Assembly (NCBI GenBank): GCA_046328215.1
Contig: JAXLXA010000002.1
Location: 18,799-82,798, forward strand
Direction of reading: 5' to 3'
Source of the DNA: Dehalococcoidia bacterium
GTDB taxonomy: Bacteria; Chloroflexota; Dehalococcoidia; Tepidiformales; Tepidiformaceae
Length of the DNA stretch: 64,000 nt
Shown: piece by piece, positions 36,568-42,914 of the stretch
Layout of the letters: the number at the start of each line of letters is the position of its first letter
How positions within the stretch are numbered: position 1 is the first letter of the stretch
The notes under the pieces: model-generated
What the model was told of the DNA's origin: nothing
Databases searched by the model: none
The model's input: the letters and a program-made list of their open reading frames with translations, nothing else
Program-made: the position numbers and the translations under genes

Positions 36568-37962
36568 ATGACCCTCGCGCAACTCGAACGTCTTCCCCCG
36601 CATGACATCGAGGCAGAGGAGGCTGTCATTGCCTCCCTCATGGTCGATTCCCAGGCCATGCTCGCTGTCCAGGGCATCGTCAAAGCCGGCGACTTCTTCC
36701 GCGAGAAGAACGGCTGGGTGTACGACGCCTGCGTAGCCCTCTGGAACCGCGACGAAGTGGTCAACCAGATCACCGTGGCGCACGAGCTCGCTTCGCGTGA
36801 CCAACTGCAAGAGGTGGGCGGCCAGACCTTCCTCGCCGACGTCATCCGCCGGCTCCCCACCTCCATCGGTGCCGAGTTCTACGCCCGCATCGTTAAGCGC
36901 GACGCGATGTACCGCGGGCTGATCCACGCGGCCACCGGCATCCTGCAGATGGCGTACGAAGCGCCCGCCGATATCGACGGCGTGTTTTCGAAGTCAGAGA
37001 ACCTGCTCCAGAAGCTGCGCGGCGGCGAAAACTTCCGCGACTTCGTCCACATCCGCCAACTGCTCGATGCCTACCTGGACCAGGACCCGGACGAGATCGA
37101 GCGGATCGAGCTCTCGGCCATCCGCACCGGGTTCAGCGACCTGGATACGCTCCTCACCGGTTTGAAGCGCTCCGACCTGGTCATCATCGGCGCCCGCCCG
37201 AGCGTTGGTAAGTCGAGCTTCGCGCTTGGCATCGCGCGCAACGCAGCCATCGAGCAGCGCGCGAGTGTCGCCTTCTTCTCGCTCGAAATGTCGTCCGAAC
37301 AACTGGCAATCCGCCTGCTCTCGGCCGAGTCGGGCGTGGACAGCTCTCGCCTCCGCCTCGGCCAGAACACGGAAATCGAGGAAAGGCGGGTTGTCGCGGC
37401 CGCCGCCCGGCTTTCGGAAGCGAACATCTGGTTCGACGATTCGCCGATGCTGACGGCGGCCGAACTCCGGGCGAAGGCGAGGCGGCTCGCCGGTGAATCG
37501 AAGCAGCTCGACCTCATCGTCATCGACTACCTCCAGCTCATGCAGGGAGAAAGCCAGACGGGCCGCGAGAACCGCGTGCAGGAGATCAGCTACATCTCGC
37601 GGACGCTGAAGGGCCTCGCCCGCGAGCTGGACGTGCCGATCGTGGCGCTGGCGCAGCTGTCCCGCGCCATCGAGAACCGCCACCCACGCACGCCGATGCT
37701 CTCGGACTTGCGCGATTCGGGCTCCATCGAGCAGGACGCCGACATCGTCATGTTCCTCAGCCGCGAAGAGCTGTACGTGACACCCGAGCAGTGGGCGCAG
37801 CAGCACCCGGACCTGCCCGAGAGCGCCTACCCGAAGGGCGTCGCGCAGGTGAGCGTGGCGAAGCACCGCAACGGCCCGACGGGCAGCGTGGAGCTCCGTT
37901 TCCGCGAGCGCCTGGCCAAGTTCGAAGACTGGGTCCTGCGAACCGATGACCTCCCTGACTAG
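36568..37962 (+). CDS. dnaB: replicative DNA helicase DnaB
   Basis: N-terminal PHDIEAEEAVIASLM. Walker A GARPSVGKSSFALGIA. Walker B DLIVIDYLQLM. 464 aa. Directly downstream of rplI. Confidence 0.9.
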   Translation: MTLAQLERLPPHDIEAEEAVIASLMVDSQAMLAVQGIVKAGDFFREKNGWVYDACVALWNRDEVVNQITVAHELASRDQLQEVGGQTFLADVIRRLPTSIGAEFYARIVKRDAMYRGLIHAATGILQMAYEAPADIDGVFSKSENLLQKLRGGENFRDFVHIRQLLDAYLDQDPDEIERIELSAIRTGFSDLDTLLTGLKRSDLVIIGARPSVGKSSFALGIARNAAIEQRASVAFFSLEMSSEQLAIRLLSAESGVDSSRLRLGQNTEIEERRVVAAAARLSEANIWFDDSPMLTAAELRAKARRLAGESKQLDLIVIDYLQLMQGESQTGRENRVQEISYISRTLKGLARELDVPIVALAQLSRAIENRHPRTPMLSDLRDSGSIEQDADIVMFLSREELYVTPEQWAQQHPDLPESAYPKGVAQVSVAKHRNGPTGSVELRFRERLAKFEDWVLRTDDLPD

Positions 37963-37973
37963 AGAGTCGTGAC

Positions 37974-38720
37974 ATGCGAACCGGCCTAGAGGAACTGGAT
38001 AGCATTCTGTGCGATCTCACTGCCGGCCATTTGGCGTGGTTGGCGGGTCCGTATCGCGCAGGGAAGTCATCGTTGCTCCTCACAGTTGCGCGGGATGTCG
38101 CTTTGCGTCAGGGATTGAAAACCCTCGTTGTATCCGGCGATGACTCCATCCGAACCATCACGGATTGGCTGCTTGCAGCAGAGTCCGGCGTACCGAGAGA
38201 TAGAGTCTCTCAGGCCGTGTTGTCCGAACTCGAAGAAAGAAGGGTCGTTGCCGCAGCTGCACGCCTCGAGAAAGCGGCGCTCCAACTTGAGGACGCTAGG
38301 CGGCTCCCCAGAGAATGGCTCACCCTTCGGCTACAATACCTCGCCGAAGGGTTCGAGCCGGACGTGATCTTGATCGACGGCCTCGAAGGCATTATCCCGC
38401 AGGATTCTCGCGACATCACAGCTCTTGACCTGAAGCAGCTCGCCCGCCGCCTAGAGTTGGTGGTTATGGTTGCGACCGAGAGCACGCTCGACGCAATCGA
38501 ACATGCCGATGTCGTGCTCAGGTTGGACCGCGAGACGCTACACGTTGACCTCGACAGGTGGCTTCTCCAGCATCCGGATCTTCCCGAGAGCGCGTTCCCG
38601 CAAAATGTCCTCGACCTCGAAGTCATCAAGAACCGGATGGGGCCGCGCGGTAGCCTGTCTCTGCGCATTCGAGAGCGGGTCGGTCGTGTCGAGGAATGGG
38701 TCATGCGATCTAATGGATGA
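37974..38720 (+). CDS. DnaB C-terminal (RecA-like) domain paralog lacking the N-terminal domain. Likely ATPase-dead.
   Basis: Aligns to the DnaB C-terminal domain: EERRVVAAAARL is identical; LQHPDLPESAFP matches QQHPDLPESAYP. Walker A-like GPYRAGKSS. Catalytic SLEMS Glu replaced (VSGDDS). Confidence 0.75.
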   Translation: MRTGLEELDSILCDLTAGHLAWLAGPYRAGKSSLLLTVARDVALRQGLKTLVVSGDDSIRTITDWLLAAESGVPRDRVSQAVLSELEERRVVAAAARLEKAALQLEDARRLPREWLTLRLQYLAEGFEPDVILIDGLEGIIPQDSRDITALDLKQLARRLELVVMVATESTLDAIEHADVVLRLDRETLHVDLDRWLLQHPDLPESAFPQNVLDLEVIKNRMGPRGSLSLRIRERVGRVEEWVMRSNG

Positions 38721-39414
38721 GTTCAAGGGCTTCCCCGGCATCGGCAAGGGGACGGTGCTGCCGAACCTGTTCTTCGCGGCCGTGCTGCCGGAGATGCGGA
38801 CGCCCGGGGCTTTGCTGGCGTTCCTCTGGGTCTCGCGGCTGCTGCAGGAGAAACGTGGCAGCGAGCGCTTCGTGAACGCGGCCGAGGTCTGGGAGCAGCC
38901 CGCGGCGCGGGAGAACTTCGAAGCGCTGGCCGGGGGCAAGAAGGGCCTGAAGGCCGGGCTGGCGGAGTGCGTCGAGCTTCGCGCGCTTCTGGCGGTTGGC
39001 CTGCGGCGGGCCGGCGGCGAGGATGTGCTCTACTTCAGCAACGACCCGGCTTCGCGGCGCACCGTTGCGCGGGCGAGGGCGGGAGAAATCACGCTCCGGC
39101 CCGACAGCATCGTCGTGCCCATCGAGCCGCGAGAACGGCGGCCCGGCATCTTCCGCCTCTACGAGGAGAATATCGGCACCATCACTCCCATCGTGGGCGA
39201 GCGGTTGATGGAGGCGCAGGACCGGTACCCGCTGGAGTGGATCGAAGACGCCTTCCGGGAAGCGGCGGAACTGAACGCGCGTAACTGGCGCTACATCGAA
39301 ACTATCCTCAGGAATTGGGCCGAGGAGGGCCGTCCTCATGAAACGCCTGGGCGAGATTCTCTCGAAGACCGTAAGCGAAAGTACCTCGGAGGCGCGCTCA
39401 GGCCGGGAAGTTGA
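38713..39414 (+). CDS. DnaD-like replication initiation/helicase-loading protein (DDBH2 domain)
   Basis: C-terminal YEENIGTITPIVGERLMEAQDRYPLEWIEDAFREAAELNARNWRYIETILRNWAEEG, a DnaD/DnaB(Bsu) DDBH2 signature. Start at MDEFKGFPG. Confidence 0.7.
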   Translation: MDEFKGFPGIGKGTVLPNLFFAAVLPEMRTPGALLAFLWVSRLLQEKRGSERFVNAAEVWEQPAARENFEALAGGKKGLKAGLAECVELRALLAVGLRRAGGEDVLYFSNDPASRRTVARARAGEITLRPDSIVVPIEPRERRPGIFRLYEENIGTITPIVGERLMEAQDRYPLEWIEDAFREAAELNARNWRYIETILRNWAEEGRPHETPGRDSLEDRKRKYLGGALRPGS

Positions 39415-40729
39415 ACCCCCGCAGGAAGCTGTCTGCCCGATCTGCAAGGGTGCGGGGTTTGTCCGCCGGTCCCTGCCCGTGGATCACCCACGGTTCGGTA
39501 AGGCGGAGCCCTGCGAGTGCGTCCTGAACGAGGACGACCACGTCCGGCGCACGCGCCTCGAGCGGATGAGCAACCTCGGCGCGCTCACTCGTTTCACATT
39601 CGAAAACATGGTGCCGACAGGCCGGAACGATGACACCGGCTGGTTCGAGCGGGCGTACGACGCGGCCCGTGAATACGCGGCGAACCCGGCCGGCTGGCTG
39701 GTGTTCACCGGAACGTCCGGCAGCGGGAAAACGCACCTCGCCGCCGCCATCGCCAACCAGCGCATCAACGCCGGCGAACCCGCGCTCTTCATGGTCGTGC
39801 CAGACCTGCTGGACCACCTGCGCGCGAGCTACGAGCCGGACGAAGACGACATGGGCTTCGAGCAGCTTTTCGACCAGGTGCGGAACACGCCGCTGCTCAT
39901 CCTCGATGACGTCGACACCGGTTCGGGGAGCCCCTGGGCGCGGGAGAAGCTGTTCCAGATCGTGAACCACCGCTTCAACGCCAGCCTGCCGACCGTGTTC
40001 ACCACCACAACGCGCCCGCAGCAACTCGATGAGCGGCTCGCGACGCGGCTGCTCGACGAGGGGCTTTCGCGCGTGATGGTGCTCGATGCCGAAGCGCGCG
40101 GCGGCTACAGCCAGGTGGGTGGGATGACCCGCGACCGCATCAACGAGCTGCAGTTCCGCAACTTTGACCTGCGCGTGCCGGGACTCCACGCCGAAGAGCG
40201 CGAATCCCTCGAATCGGCGTTCCGGGCAGCGATGGCCTTCGGTGACGACCCGCGCGGCTGGTTCGTGCTCCAGGGCGCGAATGGCTGCGGCAAGACGCAC
40301 CTTGCGGCCGCAATCGCGAACAAGGCGCTTGGCAGCGGCATGGGCGTGTTCTTGGCCGTGGTGCCGGACTTGCTGGACTACCTGCGGGCCTCGTTCGCGC
40401 CCGGAAACGAATCACCCTATGACGAGACCTTCGACCGCATCCGCAACGTTGACCTGCTGGTGCTGGATGACCTGGGCGCCCAGAAGGCCTCGGAATGGGC
40501 GCAGGAGAAGCTGTACCAGGTGGTGAACTACCGCCACGTCGCCGGGTTGCCGACGGTCGTCACCACGGACCAGTCGCTGGACAAGTTGCAGCAGGCGCAC
40601 CCGCGCATCGTCTCGCGCATCGCGGACCCGCACGCCGGGACGTTCGTGACCATCCTCGCGCCGCACTACCGGCTTGGCCGCCAGCCAGAAGCACCGGCCG
40701 CGCGGCCGGGCGGGCGGGGGCGGCGGTAG
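39338..40729 (+). CDS. DnaI/DnaC-like helicase loader with N-terminal zinc finger and two tandem IstB-like AAA+ modules
   Basis: CPICKGAGFV...CEC. AAA+ module 1 GTSGSGKTHLAAAIANQ...LLILDDVD. Module 2 GANGCGKTHLAAAIANK...LLVLDDLG. Overlaps the upstream DnaD-like gene by 77 nt. Confidence 0.8.
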   Translation: MKRLGEILSKTVSESTSEARSGREVEPPQEAVCPICKGAGFVRRSLPVDHPRFGKAEPCECVLNEDDHVRRTRLERMSNLGALTRFTFENMVPTGRNDDTGWFERAYDAAREYAANPAGWLVFTGTSGSGKTHLAAAIANQRINAGEPALFMVVPDLLDHLRASYEPDEDDMGFEQLFDQVRNTPLLILDDVDTGSGSPWAREKLFQIVNHRFNASLPTVFTTTTRPQQLDERLATRLLDEGLSRVMVLDAEARGGYSQVGGMTRDRINELQFRNFDLRVPGLHAEERESLESAFRAAMAFGDDPRGWFVLQGANGCGKTHLAAAIANKALGSGMGVFLAVVPDLLDYLRASFAPGNESPYDETFDRIRNVDLLVLDDLGAQKASEWAQEKLYQVVNYRHVAGLPTVVTTDQSLDKLQQAHPRIVSRIADPHAGTFVTILAPHYRLGRQPEAPAARPGGRGRR

Positions 40730-40763: not shown

Positions 40764-41432
40764 ATGACCATGGCCCGCGCGGTCACCTTCCTCGTGCTCT
40801 CCGGGCTGATCATGGTCCTGGGCATCGTGCTGATCATTGTCCGGGTGAACGAGGGCCTCCTGGACAGCTCTATTAGCGACCGGGACAGCGGGGCGCGCGT
40901 GGGTGACAACGCCGCCACTCCTACCGGCGGCCAGGGTGGCCTTTCGCCGGGCCAGGCTGGCGCAACCGCCACGGCGGCTATTCGCACCGTCACGGCGCTT
41001 GCGGGCGGGCGCACGCCCAACACGAACGCGCCGACACCTTCGGGCCGGGACATCACCCAGGTGGCTATCGGAGCGACGACCGAAGTCAACGGCTCCCGCT
41101 ACACCGTCCACCAGGTGGCGGACCCGGAAGCGCCCGGGCTGTTCACCACGACCACGGGAAATCGGCGCGTGGCGCTGGAAGTCACGCAGCAAGCCGTCGC
41201 GAACGACGTGGCCTATAGCTTTGCGAACTTCCGGCTGCGGGACGCGAACGGCCAGGAGCACACCTGGGCGATCACGAACACCAGCCCGCGGTTCGAATCA
41301 GGCACGTTGAAGGCCGGCGAATCGAGGCGCGGCTGGATCAGCTTCCAGGTGCCCACCGGCGTGGGCATCGACGCGTTGATCCTGCTCACGCCGGGCCAGG
41401 CCGGGGGCACGGCCATCGTGACGCTGAAGTAG
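40764..41432 (+). CDS. membrane-anchored DUF4352-like protein
   Basis: N-terminal TM AVTFLVLSGLIMVLGIVLIIV. Gly/Thr-rich linker. C-terminal beta-sandwich-like region. Confidence 0.5.
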   Translation: MTMARAVTFLVLSGLIMVLGIVLIIVRVNEGLLDSSISDRDSGARVGDNAATPTGGQGGLSPGQAGATATAAIRTVTALAGGRTPNTNAPTPSGRDITQVAIGATTEVNGSRYTVHQVADPEAPGLFTTTTGNRRVALEVTQQAVANDVAYSFANFRLRDANGQEHTWAITNTSPRFESGTLKAGESRRGWISFQVPTGVGIDALILLTPGQAGGTAIVTLK

Positions 41433-41448
41433 GGCCCTCACCCCCGTC

Positions 41449-41830
41449 CCCTCTCCCGCGCTGCGGGCGAGGGGAGCTAAGCGCGTGGCGAGAACAGTGT
41501 GCCGGACGGGACTAGTCGATGCGGATGGCTGAGCGGTGGAAGCGGCGATGATGTCCGGGTCCGGGATGATGGATACCCGCGCGTTCTCCTTGCCCGCGTA
41601 CTCGAACGCCGAGAGCACGTGGCGGATGCTCTCCATGCACGCCCCGTCCCCTCTCCCGCGCTGCGGGCGAGGGGAGCTAAGCGCCTGGAGAGAACAGTGT
41701 GCCGGACGGGACTAGTCGATGCGGATGGCTGAGCGGTGGAACCGGCCGATGATGTCCGGGTCGGGGATGATGGATACCCGCGCGTTCTCCTTGCCCGCGT
41801 ACTCGAACGCCGAAAGCACGTGGCGGATGC
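41449..41830. repeat. tandem duplication of ~190 bp comprising the ppk2 3' end plus a downstream GC palindrome (cccctctcccgcgctgcgggcgagggg)
   Basis: 41449-41640 is nearly identical to 41640-41830. The second copy is the functional ppk2 C-terminus. Confidence 0.85.
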
Positions 41831-42764
41831 TCTCCAGGCGCGCGGCCCGCTTGTCGTTCGCCTTCACGATGATCCATGGGCTGAAGCTGGTGTGCGTCAG
41901 GCTGAACATCCGCTCCTTGTGGCGCGTGTAGTCGTCCCACAGCTCCTGGCCGCGCTCGTCGATCGGGCTCAGCTTCCACTGCTTGAGCGGGTTGTTGCGG
42001 CGGGAGTCGAAGCGGGCAGCCTGGACCTCTTTCGAGATGGAGAACCAGAACTTCACGATGTCCACGCCGTCTTCCACGAGCATATGCTCGAACTCGGGGG
42101 TCTGGCGCATGAAGCGGTCGTACTGTTCAGGCGTGCAGAAGCCCATGACGGGCTCGACGACGGCGCGGTTGTACCAGGAGCGGTCGAAGAAGACGATTTC
42201 GCCGCGATTGGGGAGCTGGCGCATGTAGCGCTGGAAGTACCACTGGCCGGTCTCGTCGTCCGTTGGTTTCGGGAGCGCGACCACGCGCATGGCGCGCGGG
42301 TTGAGGTGCTCGGTGAAGCGCCGGATCGTGCCGCCCTTGCCGGCGGCGTCGCGCCCTTCGAACAGGATCGCCAACCGGCGGCCGCTTTCCTGCACCCAGC
42401 GCTGCAACTTCACGAGCTCGATTTGCAGGCTCTCCAGCTCGTACTCGTACTGCATCGCCTTCTTCACGCGGCCGACGCTGACATTCTTCGTGCGCAACAG
42501 CTGGATGAACTCGCGCGAGGTGTGCAGGTCGCTCAGCTCTTCCTGCAGGACCACCTGGTCCGGGAGGGAGACCCACTTTGTCGAATGGATGGCGTCGGCC
42601 ATGGCAGCGAGCGTTTCGTCGCTGACGGAGCCGTCTTCGGGGAGCACCGCGCGCAGCACGCTGAGCAACTCCTGCTTCAGGGACGGGGGTGTGCCCGTGC
42701 CATTGAGGCCGGCCCCGTTCAGGCCTGGCTCGTGTTTCGTGTCCTTCGGCGCCAGTTGCGTCAT
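41712..42764 (-). CDS. ppk2: polyphosphate kinase 2
   Basis: ILFEGRDAAGKGGTIRRF (Walker A), FDRSWYNR, lid motifs. Start at MTQLAPKD. Confidence 0.85.
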   Translation of the reverse strand: MTQLAPKDTKHEPGLNGAGLNGTGTPPSLKQELLSVLRAVLPEDGSVSDETLAAMADAIHSTKWVSLPDQVVLQEELSDLHTSREFIQLLRTKNVSVGRVKKAMQYEYELESLQIELVKLQRWVQESGRRLAILFEGRDAAGKGGTIRRFTEHLNPRAMRVVALPKPTDDETGQWYFQRYMRQLPNRGEIVFFDRSWYNRAVVEPVMGFCTPEQYDRFMRQTPEFEHMLVEDGVDIVKFWFSISKEVQAARFDSRRNNPLKQWKLSPIDERGQELWDDYTRHKERMFSLTHTSFSPWIIVKANDKRAARLESIRHVLSAFEYAGKENARVSIIPDPDIIGRFHRSAIRID

Positions 42765-42914
42765 GGTTGCTCTCCAACAAACGAATCGGCCGGCCCATTG
42801 CGGTACCGACACCAATAGATGACGGCAAGAACTGCGCTAGCGGTAGGATCGTTCGGGCTTTCAGCCTGACCCGGTGGTGCCTATGCGCGATCGGCTCGGT
42901 GCCTGGGCGCCCTC

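Follow-up and report, generated by a model that had tools for sequence, protein, structure and literature searches.

The gene at positions 39338-40729 on the forward strand of a 64,000-nucleotide stretch of DNA from a Dehalococcoidia bacterium of Tepidiformaceae type (GenBank assembly GCA_046328215.1, contig JAXLXA010000002.1; the whole stretch is hereafter called the window) is probably a chromosomal replicative-helicase loader of the DnaC/DnaI clade, whose AAA+ module was tandemly duplicated in Chloroflexota together with a short upstream linker. A sequence-only reading of the window had proposed a loader resembling DnaI/DnaC, in which the AAA+ module is duplicated internally and an N-terminal C4 motif is present, and both parts of that proposal were borne out. 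The open reading frame (ORF) encodes 463 amino acids followed by a stop codon, and every motif quoted in the proposal was found in the translation. The parts of the gene are listed below.

39338-40729, forward strand: tandem-AAA+ helicase-loader gene, recognised from the ORF, its translation, and Pfam, NCBIfam and PDB sequence matches.
39338-39367, forward strand: the conserved peptide MKRLGEILSK at the N terminus (residues 1-10), ahead of a linker that is variable, modelled with low confidence and extends to residue 29.
39434-39520, forward strand: Cys4 motif C33-x2-C36-x22-C59-x-C61, the putative zinc-binding and helicase-binding N-terminal domain.
39569-40105, forward strand: AAA+ module 1 (residues 78-256), supported by self-alignment, motif statistics and the fold match to DnaC/DnaI.
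39710-39733, forward strand: Walker A of module 1 (G125-T132).
39893-39910, forward strand: Walker B of module 1 (L186-D191).
40046-40048, forward strand: arginine finger R237 of module 1, with R233 as the arginine coupler and no sensor II arginine.
40106-40678, forward strand: AAA+ module 2 (residues 257-447), supported by motif statistics and by its being exactly the module that natural single-module variants retain.
40274-40297, forward strand: Walker A of module 2 (G313-T320).
40454-40471, forward strand: Walker B of module 2 (L373-D378).
40616-40618, forward strand: arginine finger R427 of module 2, with R423 as the arginine coupler.
40670-40672, forward strand: sensor II arginine R445 of module 2.
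40679-40726, forward strand: basic C-terminal tail (residues 448-463, ending in RPGGRGRR), read from the translation and predicted with a local distance difference test score (pLDDT) of ~50.

The internal duplication was evident when the N-terminal half of the protein was aligned with its C-terminal half by BLASTP, which gave 73 identities over 174 positions (42%, E=1e-42) between approximately residues 78-255 and 257-440. The repeat unit (~78-256 and 257-447) includes a short "SNLGxLTRFTFxN" linker ahead of each AAA+ core, and the Pfam families IstB_IS21 (1.6e-30) and Bac_DnaA (1.5e-20) each matched the loader in two stretches. Walker A, Walker B, arginine-finger and single-stranded DNA (ssDNA)-contact motifs were present in both halves. 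From the N to the C terminus, the loader is laid out as a conserved N-terminal peptide, a Cys4 domain, module 1, a structured connector, module 2 and a basic tail. All four cysteines (C33, C36, C59 and C61) were kept in 80 of the 80 aligned relatives covering the region. Within the N-terminal peptide, M1, L4, L8 and S9 were invariant in close relatives, in which the form MKRLxEILSK is kept, and the distant loci had the consensus ME[HS]I[SG]EILK[RK]. The C-terminal tail of the relatives was variable in sequence yet Arg-rich.

Motif conservation was assessed in an alignment of 81 tandem proteins, using the E. coli DnaC motif definitions of Puri et al. 2021 (PMC8213410). The Walker A residues were invariant in both modules (K131/T132 and K319/T320, 81/81 each), as were the Walker B acidic residues (D190 and D377/D378, 81/81) except for D191 of module 1 (80/81). 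The arginine finger, equivalent to R220 of E. coli DnaC, was found in 72 of the 81 sequences in module 1 (R237) and in all of them in module 2 (R427). The arginine coupler four residues before the finger (R216 in E. coli DnaC) occurred in 72/81 at R233 of module 1 and in 61/81 at R423 of module 2. The sensor II arginine (R237 in E. coli DnaC) was present in module 2 (R445, 70/81) and had no counterpart in module 1. Positions hand-aligned to the sensor I residue N203 (T224 in module 1 and D411 in module 2) were variable in both modules; two residues upstream of the module 2 position lies an invariant threonine, T409, and the beta4 threonine of module 1 was less conserved. In E. coli DnaC, ssDNA is contacted by the tetrad K143/F146/S177/Y179 (PMC8213410). 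By hand alignment, its equivalents are R162/Y165/S198/W200 in module 1 and R350/F353/S385/W387 in module 2, and these residues were conserved across the 81 sequences, being invariant or nearly so in relatives. Module 2 is thus a well conserved AAA+ module, contrary to the concern that it might lack AAA+ features on careful alignment. Mean pairwise identity reached 0.544 in module 1 and 0.528 in module 2; because both modules evolve at the same rate, module 1 is not a decaying copy.

The duplication was also apparent in structure prediction. The AlphaFold2 (AF2) model of the full-length protein, computed from a 65-sequence alignment, contained two alpha/beta modules of AAA+ fold (mean pLDDT 83; predicted template modelling score, pTM, 0.51), each with paired helices of the initiator-specific motif (ISM; 154-164/174-183 and 342-352/361-370). 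Residues 1-29 were disordered (pLDDT <50), and the Cys4 region was modelled with short beta elements at a pLDDT of ~75-84. When the two-module core was modelled alone, the pLDDT was 89 and the pTM 0.64, with a structured inter-module connector (pLDDT ~71-93). In Foldseek searches, each module superposed on Aquifex DnaC 3ecc (template modelling score, TM, 0.81; root-mean-square deviation, rmsd, 2.5 A), on Geobacillus DnaI 2w58 (TM 0.77) and on E. coli DnaC 6qem_G (rmsd 2.5 A). No PDB chain matched both modules at once in the Foldseek search against the PDB, and p97-type tandem chains superposed on the whole loader chain with a TM of only ~0.3 and an rmsd of ~15 A (13-20 A).

These features place the loader in the DnaC/DnaI clade of AAA+ ATPases, within a zinc-ribbon-bearing, PRK08116-like subfamily. 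Its best PDB sequence matches were E. coli DnaC 6qel, G. kaustophilus DnaI 2w58 and B. subtilis DnaI 4m4w. NCBIfam NF005992 (PRK08116) was the only curated family above its cutoff (212.8 bits vs 189, as the sum of two stretches), whereas the equivalogs for DnaC (NF005931, 127.8 bits vs 357), DnaI (NF006505, 126.5 bits vs 228) and IstB (NF038214, 126.5 bits vs 200) were not reached. Pfam DnaI_N had no match on the loader at E<=0.01. The protein has the initiator/loader AAA+ fold with ISM helices, Walker A and B motifs, an arginine finger with its coupler, the ssDNA tetrad and the association with helicase and DnaD genes that mark the clade; in carrying more than one AAA+ module per polypeptide, it departs from all characterised members.

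The comparison with individual systems gave a mixed pattern of likeness and difference. With E. coli DnaC (6QEL/6QEM), the loader shares the fold, the ISM helices, Walker A/B, the coupler-finger spacing, the ssDNA tetrad in both modules and, in module 2 only, sensor II. DnaC, however, carries only one AAA+ module, its N-terminal domain is helical and contains no metal, and its gene does not lie beside dnaB or a dnaD-like gene; the sensor I asparagine of DnaC is not conserved in the tandem loader. The DnaI proteins of B. subtilis and Geobacillus (4M4W, 2W58) work with DnaD-family co-loaders and are encoded downstream of one, but also have a single AAA+ module. The DnaI N-terminal domain binds zinc through Cys67, Cys70, His84 and Cys101 and is preceded by a conserved unstructured segment (PMC2673437); the tandem loader has C-x2-C-x22-C-x-C instead of this ligand set. 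NF005992, the best-scoring curated family, is a DnaC-like 'hypothetical protein' subfamily without an experimentally defined function, and its one-module model of 269 positions matches twice per chain in the tandem loader. IstB of IS21 (5BQ5, 8Q3W) belongs to the same AAA+ clade and represents the top Pfam family by score, but is a single-module protein, and the loader has neither an IstA partner nor an insertion sequence (IS) context. Type II AAA+ proteins (p97/VCP, NSF and ClpB) do carry two modules per chain, one of them catalytically less complete; they belong to a different AAA+ clade from the loader, which is of the initiator clade, superpose poorly over the whole chain, and remodel proteins instead of loading helicases.

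To assess the distribution of the tandem form, one genome per GTDB species was scanned, and at least 501 loci encoded a relative of the loader; locus counts given here refer to the best 80. All 80 encoded the tandem form at 450-488 amino acids (one being cut by a contig end), in genomes of Dehalococcoidia, Anaerolineae, Caldilineaceae and Ardenticatenales and in two probably mis-binned metagenome-assembled genomes (MAGs). A protein search with the loader yielded 120 clusters that were 58-99% identical to it and, almost without exception, full length; their sources, assigned to Dehalococcoidia, Tepidiformaceae or Tepidiforma, name these proteins only "ATP-binding protein" or "DnaC". In a library of representatives at 50% identity, 636 clusters matched the loader at E<=1e-30; among the best 150 of these representatives, 85 had a complete N-terminal domain and two modules, and a further 29 had two modules without a scored N-terminal domain. 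On this comparative basis, the two-module form is the normal loader architecture in Chloroflexota. The architecture had been called unusual at the outset, which holds relative to the single-module loaders that have been studied, but it is the standard form across this phylum.

The same data bear on the possibility that a sequencing or assembly error fused two single-module loader genes, or that a frameshift hides a fusion of the DnaD-like and loader genes. This was an a priori possibility only, raised in the sequence-only reading; the source appears to be a MAG. Against it, an uninterrupted tandem ORF was present in 80/80 of the best loci from different assemblies and in hundreds of protein clusters drawn from NCBI, JGI, ENA and Logan, so that no fewer than 80 independent genomes reproduce the fusion. 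A strain ~96% identical in DNA carries the same tandem gene. In addition, the overlap with the dnaD-like gene described below has the same frame relation in 75 loci with both frames conserved, and N-terminally extended relatives lack a DnaD domain. The artefact is already refuted by these sequence comparisons, and we give it practically no credence. The loader is widespread in databases, yet undescribed as far as the literature could be searched: a full-text search, in which subscription-only papers were not covered, found no description of a tandem-AAA+ bacterial helicase loader. Brezellec et al. 2016 counted one dna[CI] domestication in Chloroflexi (PMC5109545), and the text and accessible supplements of that study contain no mention of a duplication in the Chloroflexi dna[CI] gene.

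The genetic context analysis indicated that the loader closes a replication gene cluster. The order rplI-dnaB-dnaD-like-loader was found in nearly all of the best 80 loci and also in loci L081, L082 and L084. Because of this conserved order and the domestication counted in 2016, a chromosomal role is assigned to the loader. The other elements of the cluster in the window are as follows.

36568-37962, forward strand: dnaB replicative helicase (464 amino acids; PF03796 1.1e-97, PF00772 1e-24), the first replication gene of the conserved cluster.
38713-39414, forward strand: dnaD-like gene (233 amino acids) with a DnaD/DnaB_2 domain at residues 148-207 (PF07261 1.6e-10, TIGR01446 2.2e-12).
39324-39328, forward strand: Shine-Dalgarno-like GGAGG within the dnaD-like coding sequence, 9 nt ahead of the loader ATG.
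39338-39414, forward strand: 77-nt out-of-frame dual-coding overlap of the dnaD-like 3' end and the loader 5' end.

The upstream DnaD-like gene and its 77-nt overlap with the loader, both noted in the sequence-only reading, were confirmed by the domain matches and by the coordinates. No ATG, GTG or TTG occurs between 39338 and the first Cys codon at 39434; the loader start codon is therefore real, and so is the overlap. In 75 of 79 related loci the overlap measured at least 53 nt, with a median of 83 nt, and all overlap lengths were 2 mod 3, giving an identical frame relation everywhere. Within the overlap, codons for the loader N-terminal peptide come first and those for the C-terminal motif of the DnaD-like protein second; the consensus of this motif in relatives is DPDKYIKGKYGHMVRR, the tail in the window reads ...RKRKYLGGALRPGS, and both peptides are conserved. 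A semi-conserved "NTS..NTDTWS" in the disordered linker of the loader is probably a by-product of the constraint on the DnaD-like tail. Of the two explanations first offered for the overlap, translational coupling and a hidden frameshift or sequencing error, the conserved out-of-frame arrangement is consistent with the former, and the latter was rejected because the frame relation is constant and each frame, being intact, carries its own conserved peptide. A DnaD-loader fusion was likewise rejected, as the homologs with long N-terminal extensions (P0240, P0246, P0248, P0261, P0269 and P0270) contained no DnaD/DnaB_2 domain. The natural reading of the arrangement is that it would couple translation of the adaptor and the loader.

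This conserved position also speaks to the idea that the gene encodes a mobile-element or phage ATPase, either an IS21 IstB-type helper or a prophage DnaC, rather than a host loader. Such an origin would agree with IstB_IS21 as the top Pfam family by score and with the view that DnaC/DnaI genes are phage-derived (PMC5109545). The score falls well short of the IstB equivalog cutoff (126.5 bits vs 200), no IstA transposase or phage genes flank the loader, and different classes of the phylum keep the gene in the same slot, with dnaB/dnaD-like on one side and housekeeping genes on the other, so that a mobile-element ATPase is considered very unlikely.

By analogy with DnaC and DnaI, the Cys4 N-terminal domain would tether the loader to DnaB, and the AAA+ modules would form a spiral that binds ATP and ssDNA. 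Recruitment of the complex would fall to the DnaD-like protein, whose conserved C-terminal tail may attach to one of the loader AAA+ modules, similar to the tail of B. subtilis DnaB, which binds the N-terminal helices of the DnaI AAA+ domain (PMC13326638). The mechanism that we favour, at somewhat less than an even chance, is that the two modules would act as covalently pre-assembled neighbouring protomers in a DnaC-type right-handed spiral. With three chains on each DnaB hexamer, there would be six AAA+ modules yet no more than three tethers to the helicase. The arrangement would create two composite ATP sites that are not equivalent, one formed by the module 2 pocket, with its sensor II, and the module 1 arginine finger, and the other by the module 1 pocket, without sensor II, and the invariant module 2 arginine finger. 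The retention of trans-acting fingers and pore-facing ssDNA residues in both modules and the predicted structured connector support such a spiral pair. Correlated loss of the module 1 arginine finger with the module 2 sensor II or coupler, which would favour an alternating spiral, gave no signal in the alignment, the events being too few.

Several observations weigh against this mechanism, foremost the variation in module number within the same operon. Precise in-frame deletions of module 1 were seen in two protein clusters, one with 44 members and one with 27, on contigs of up to 531 kb; the break lies between the repeated "SNLG...TFxNF" linkers, and the N-terminal domain and module 2 are kept. 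The single module of P0394 is 83% identical to module 2 of the L061 tandem, and its gene lies in the same rplI-dnaB-dnaD-like-loader operon, including the overlap; P0403 is an independent module 1 deletion, nearest to L080. Module 1 is therefore dispensable in at least two lineages. In the other direction, P0121, found on two contigs, is an 827-aa protein with four modules encoded downstream of dnaB and a dnaD-like gene, and P0123 is a 792-aa protein with three modules encoded downstream of rplI-dnaB. Because one-, three- and four-module variants exist, a strict rule of three chains with two modules each making six is not general. Furthermore, all catalytic deficits are in module 1, namely the absent sensor II, the arginine finger lost in 9/81 sequences and the less conserved beta4 threonine, a pattern that fits a specialised or regulatory module 1, or two tiers, at least as well. 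The pTM values of the full-length model and of the core are only moderate, and the non-conserved sensor I position suggests that ATP turnover may be slow or unconventional.

One alternative arrangement is a division of labour, in which module 2 would be the working ATPase in a spiral on DnaB and module 1 an accessory ATP-binding regulator or docking platform outside it, for example for the DnaD-like C-terminal tail or DnaA, with six chains per hexamer. It is suggested by the two independent, precise deletions in P0394 and P0403 within the same operon, by the missing sensor II arginine, and by the replacement of the module 1 arginine finger with H or Q precisely in the clade that lies closest to the P0394 deletion lineage; the binding of the B. 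subtilis DnaB tail to the DnaI AAA+ domain provides a precedent. Nevertheless, module 1 keeps the full ssDNA tetrad and, in ~89% of the sequences, the arginine coupler and the arginine finger, and evolves as slowly as module 2, more than mere docking would be expected to need, and the single-module lineages are a small minority. A division of labour is regarded as possible but doubtful.

The three- and four-module variants are easier to picture as extra tiers, which brings in a two-tier assembly like that of p97, NSF and ClpB. Here six chains with six N-terminal domains would sit on each DnaB hexamer, with one tier of module 1 and another of module 2, the former partly degenerate. The 6:6 ratio would keep the one-tether-per-subunit rule of the E. 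coli DnaB6-DnaC6 complex, and the confinement of the deficits in arginine finger and sensor II to module 1 is what would be expected if module 1 fingers complete module 1 sites. The poor whole-chain superposition on p97-type chains (TM ~0.3, rmsd ~15 A) argues against stacked tiers, and pore-facing ssDNA residues in both modules would require ssDNA to thread through two tiers. The modules are also of the DnaC clade, with ISM helices and without a full lid, and in the known structures (6QEM and 3ECC) DnaC-clade modules form open spirals rather than stacked closed rings. Taken together, a two-tier assembly seems rather improbable.

Returning to the spiral pair, the observations can be combined into a broader proposal, which is offered tentatively and is more apt to need revision than to hold in full. 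The Chloroflexota loader would be a set of covalently linked AAA+ modules whose number changes in evolution (1, 2, 3 or 4); the two-module form would be a trimer forming a pseudo-hexameric spiral with three tethers and two types of ATP site; and a phylum-wide dual-coding segment of ~80 nt would fix the adaptor:loader expression ratio.

The history of the duplication was examined in a neighbour-joining tree of 354 modules, in which internal branches were very short. Module 1 stood apart from module 2 for 71 of 80 loci. At nine Anaerolineae-class loci (L040, L041, L053, L055, L058, L073, L075, L078 and L079), the first module clustered with module 2 and single-module relatives and not with the Dehalococcoidia module 1. 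This pattern suggests either an independent duplication or homogenisation (concerted evolution) of both modules, between which the tree is too weak to choose.

Some of the variant loci had further peculiarities. At the P0123 locus (L085, 3004-5382), the loader directly follows dnaB with no dnaD-like gene between them, and its C terminus is extended by ~155 residues, for which Pfam gave no match at 1e-5. The dnaB gene at the P0121 locus (L084, 2433-4259) encodes 608 amino acids with an intein (Pfam Intein_splicing), and the dnaB match at L042 is split by an insertion of ~540 nt that may be another intein.

In the window itself, an extra ORF (37974-38720, forward strand, 248 amino acids) lies between dnaB and the dnaD-like gene, its stop overlapping the dnaD-like ATG by 8 nt. 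Its product amounts to no more than the RecA-like C-terminal domain of a DnaB, shares 37% identity with the resident DnaB and keeps Walker A; missing are the N-terminal domain and linker helix, along with ~25 amino acids that include the H4/arginine-finger region. The ORF was absent from all 80 related loci and from the ~96% identical strain, where the interval measures 103 nt vs 761 nt in the window; its sole database match was an identical protein from an NCBI Dehalococcoidia MAG. The GC content at third codon positions was 0.66 vs 0.83-0.88 in the neighbours. A strain-specific helicase fragment, either acquired or in decay, is one possible explanation of the ORF; a decoy or regulator of the helicase is another. 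The idea of a heterohexamer, in which its product would pair with the tandem loader to give three tethering sites, was rejected as a general explanation, the ORF being an orphan missing from the 80 loci and from the ~96% identical strain.

Directly downstream of the loader, a DUF4352 protein with an N-terminal hydrophobic segment is encoded at 40764-41432 (forward strand). The closest relatives (L001, L082 and L083) have this gene in the same place; because it is missing there in distant loci, it is probably unrelated to the replication cluster. Beyond it, a repeat search identified a 200-nt direct tandem duplication at 41442-41843, missed by Tandem Repeats Finder, with copies 96-97% identical. 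It spans the 3' end of the PPK2 gene (41712-42815, minus strand) and the adjoining intergenic region, and creates a second, truncated PPK2 C-terminus (ORF 41298-41636). In the related strain L082 the 200-nt sequence occurs only once.

The tandem loader is best described as an architectural variant within the DnaC/DnaI clade, lacking the single-module feature of every characterised member. To our knowledge, the mechanism of bacterial AAA+ loaders has been studied only in single-module proteins (E. coli DnaC, B. subtilis and S. aureus DnaI, and Aquifex DnaC) that act as six identical subunits, in which it is hard to ask which ATP sites and helicase tethers matter. With two fused, non-identical and conserved modules, one-module mutants would address half of the sites in a defined pattern, and the natural one-, three- and four-module variants are ready-made controls, so that loader stoichiometry and ATP-site asymmetry become directly testable. 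The acquisition of dna[CI] by Chloroflexota, noted in 2016, was then followed by architectural innovation, in proteins that annotation pipelines label only "ATP-binding protein" or "DnaC". The cluster also documents a long, conserved out-of-frame overlap of two replication genes in which each frame has its own conserved peptide. If the trimer reading is true, the DnaB hexamer would be opened and loaded with half the tethers and with an intrinsically asymmetric ATPase ring.

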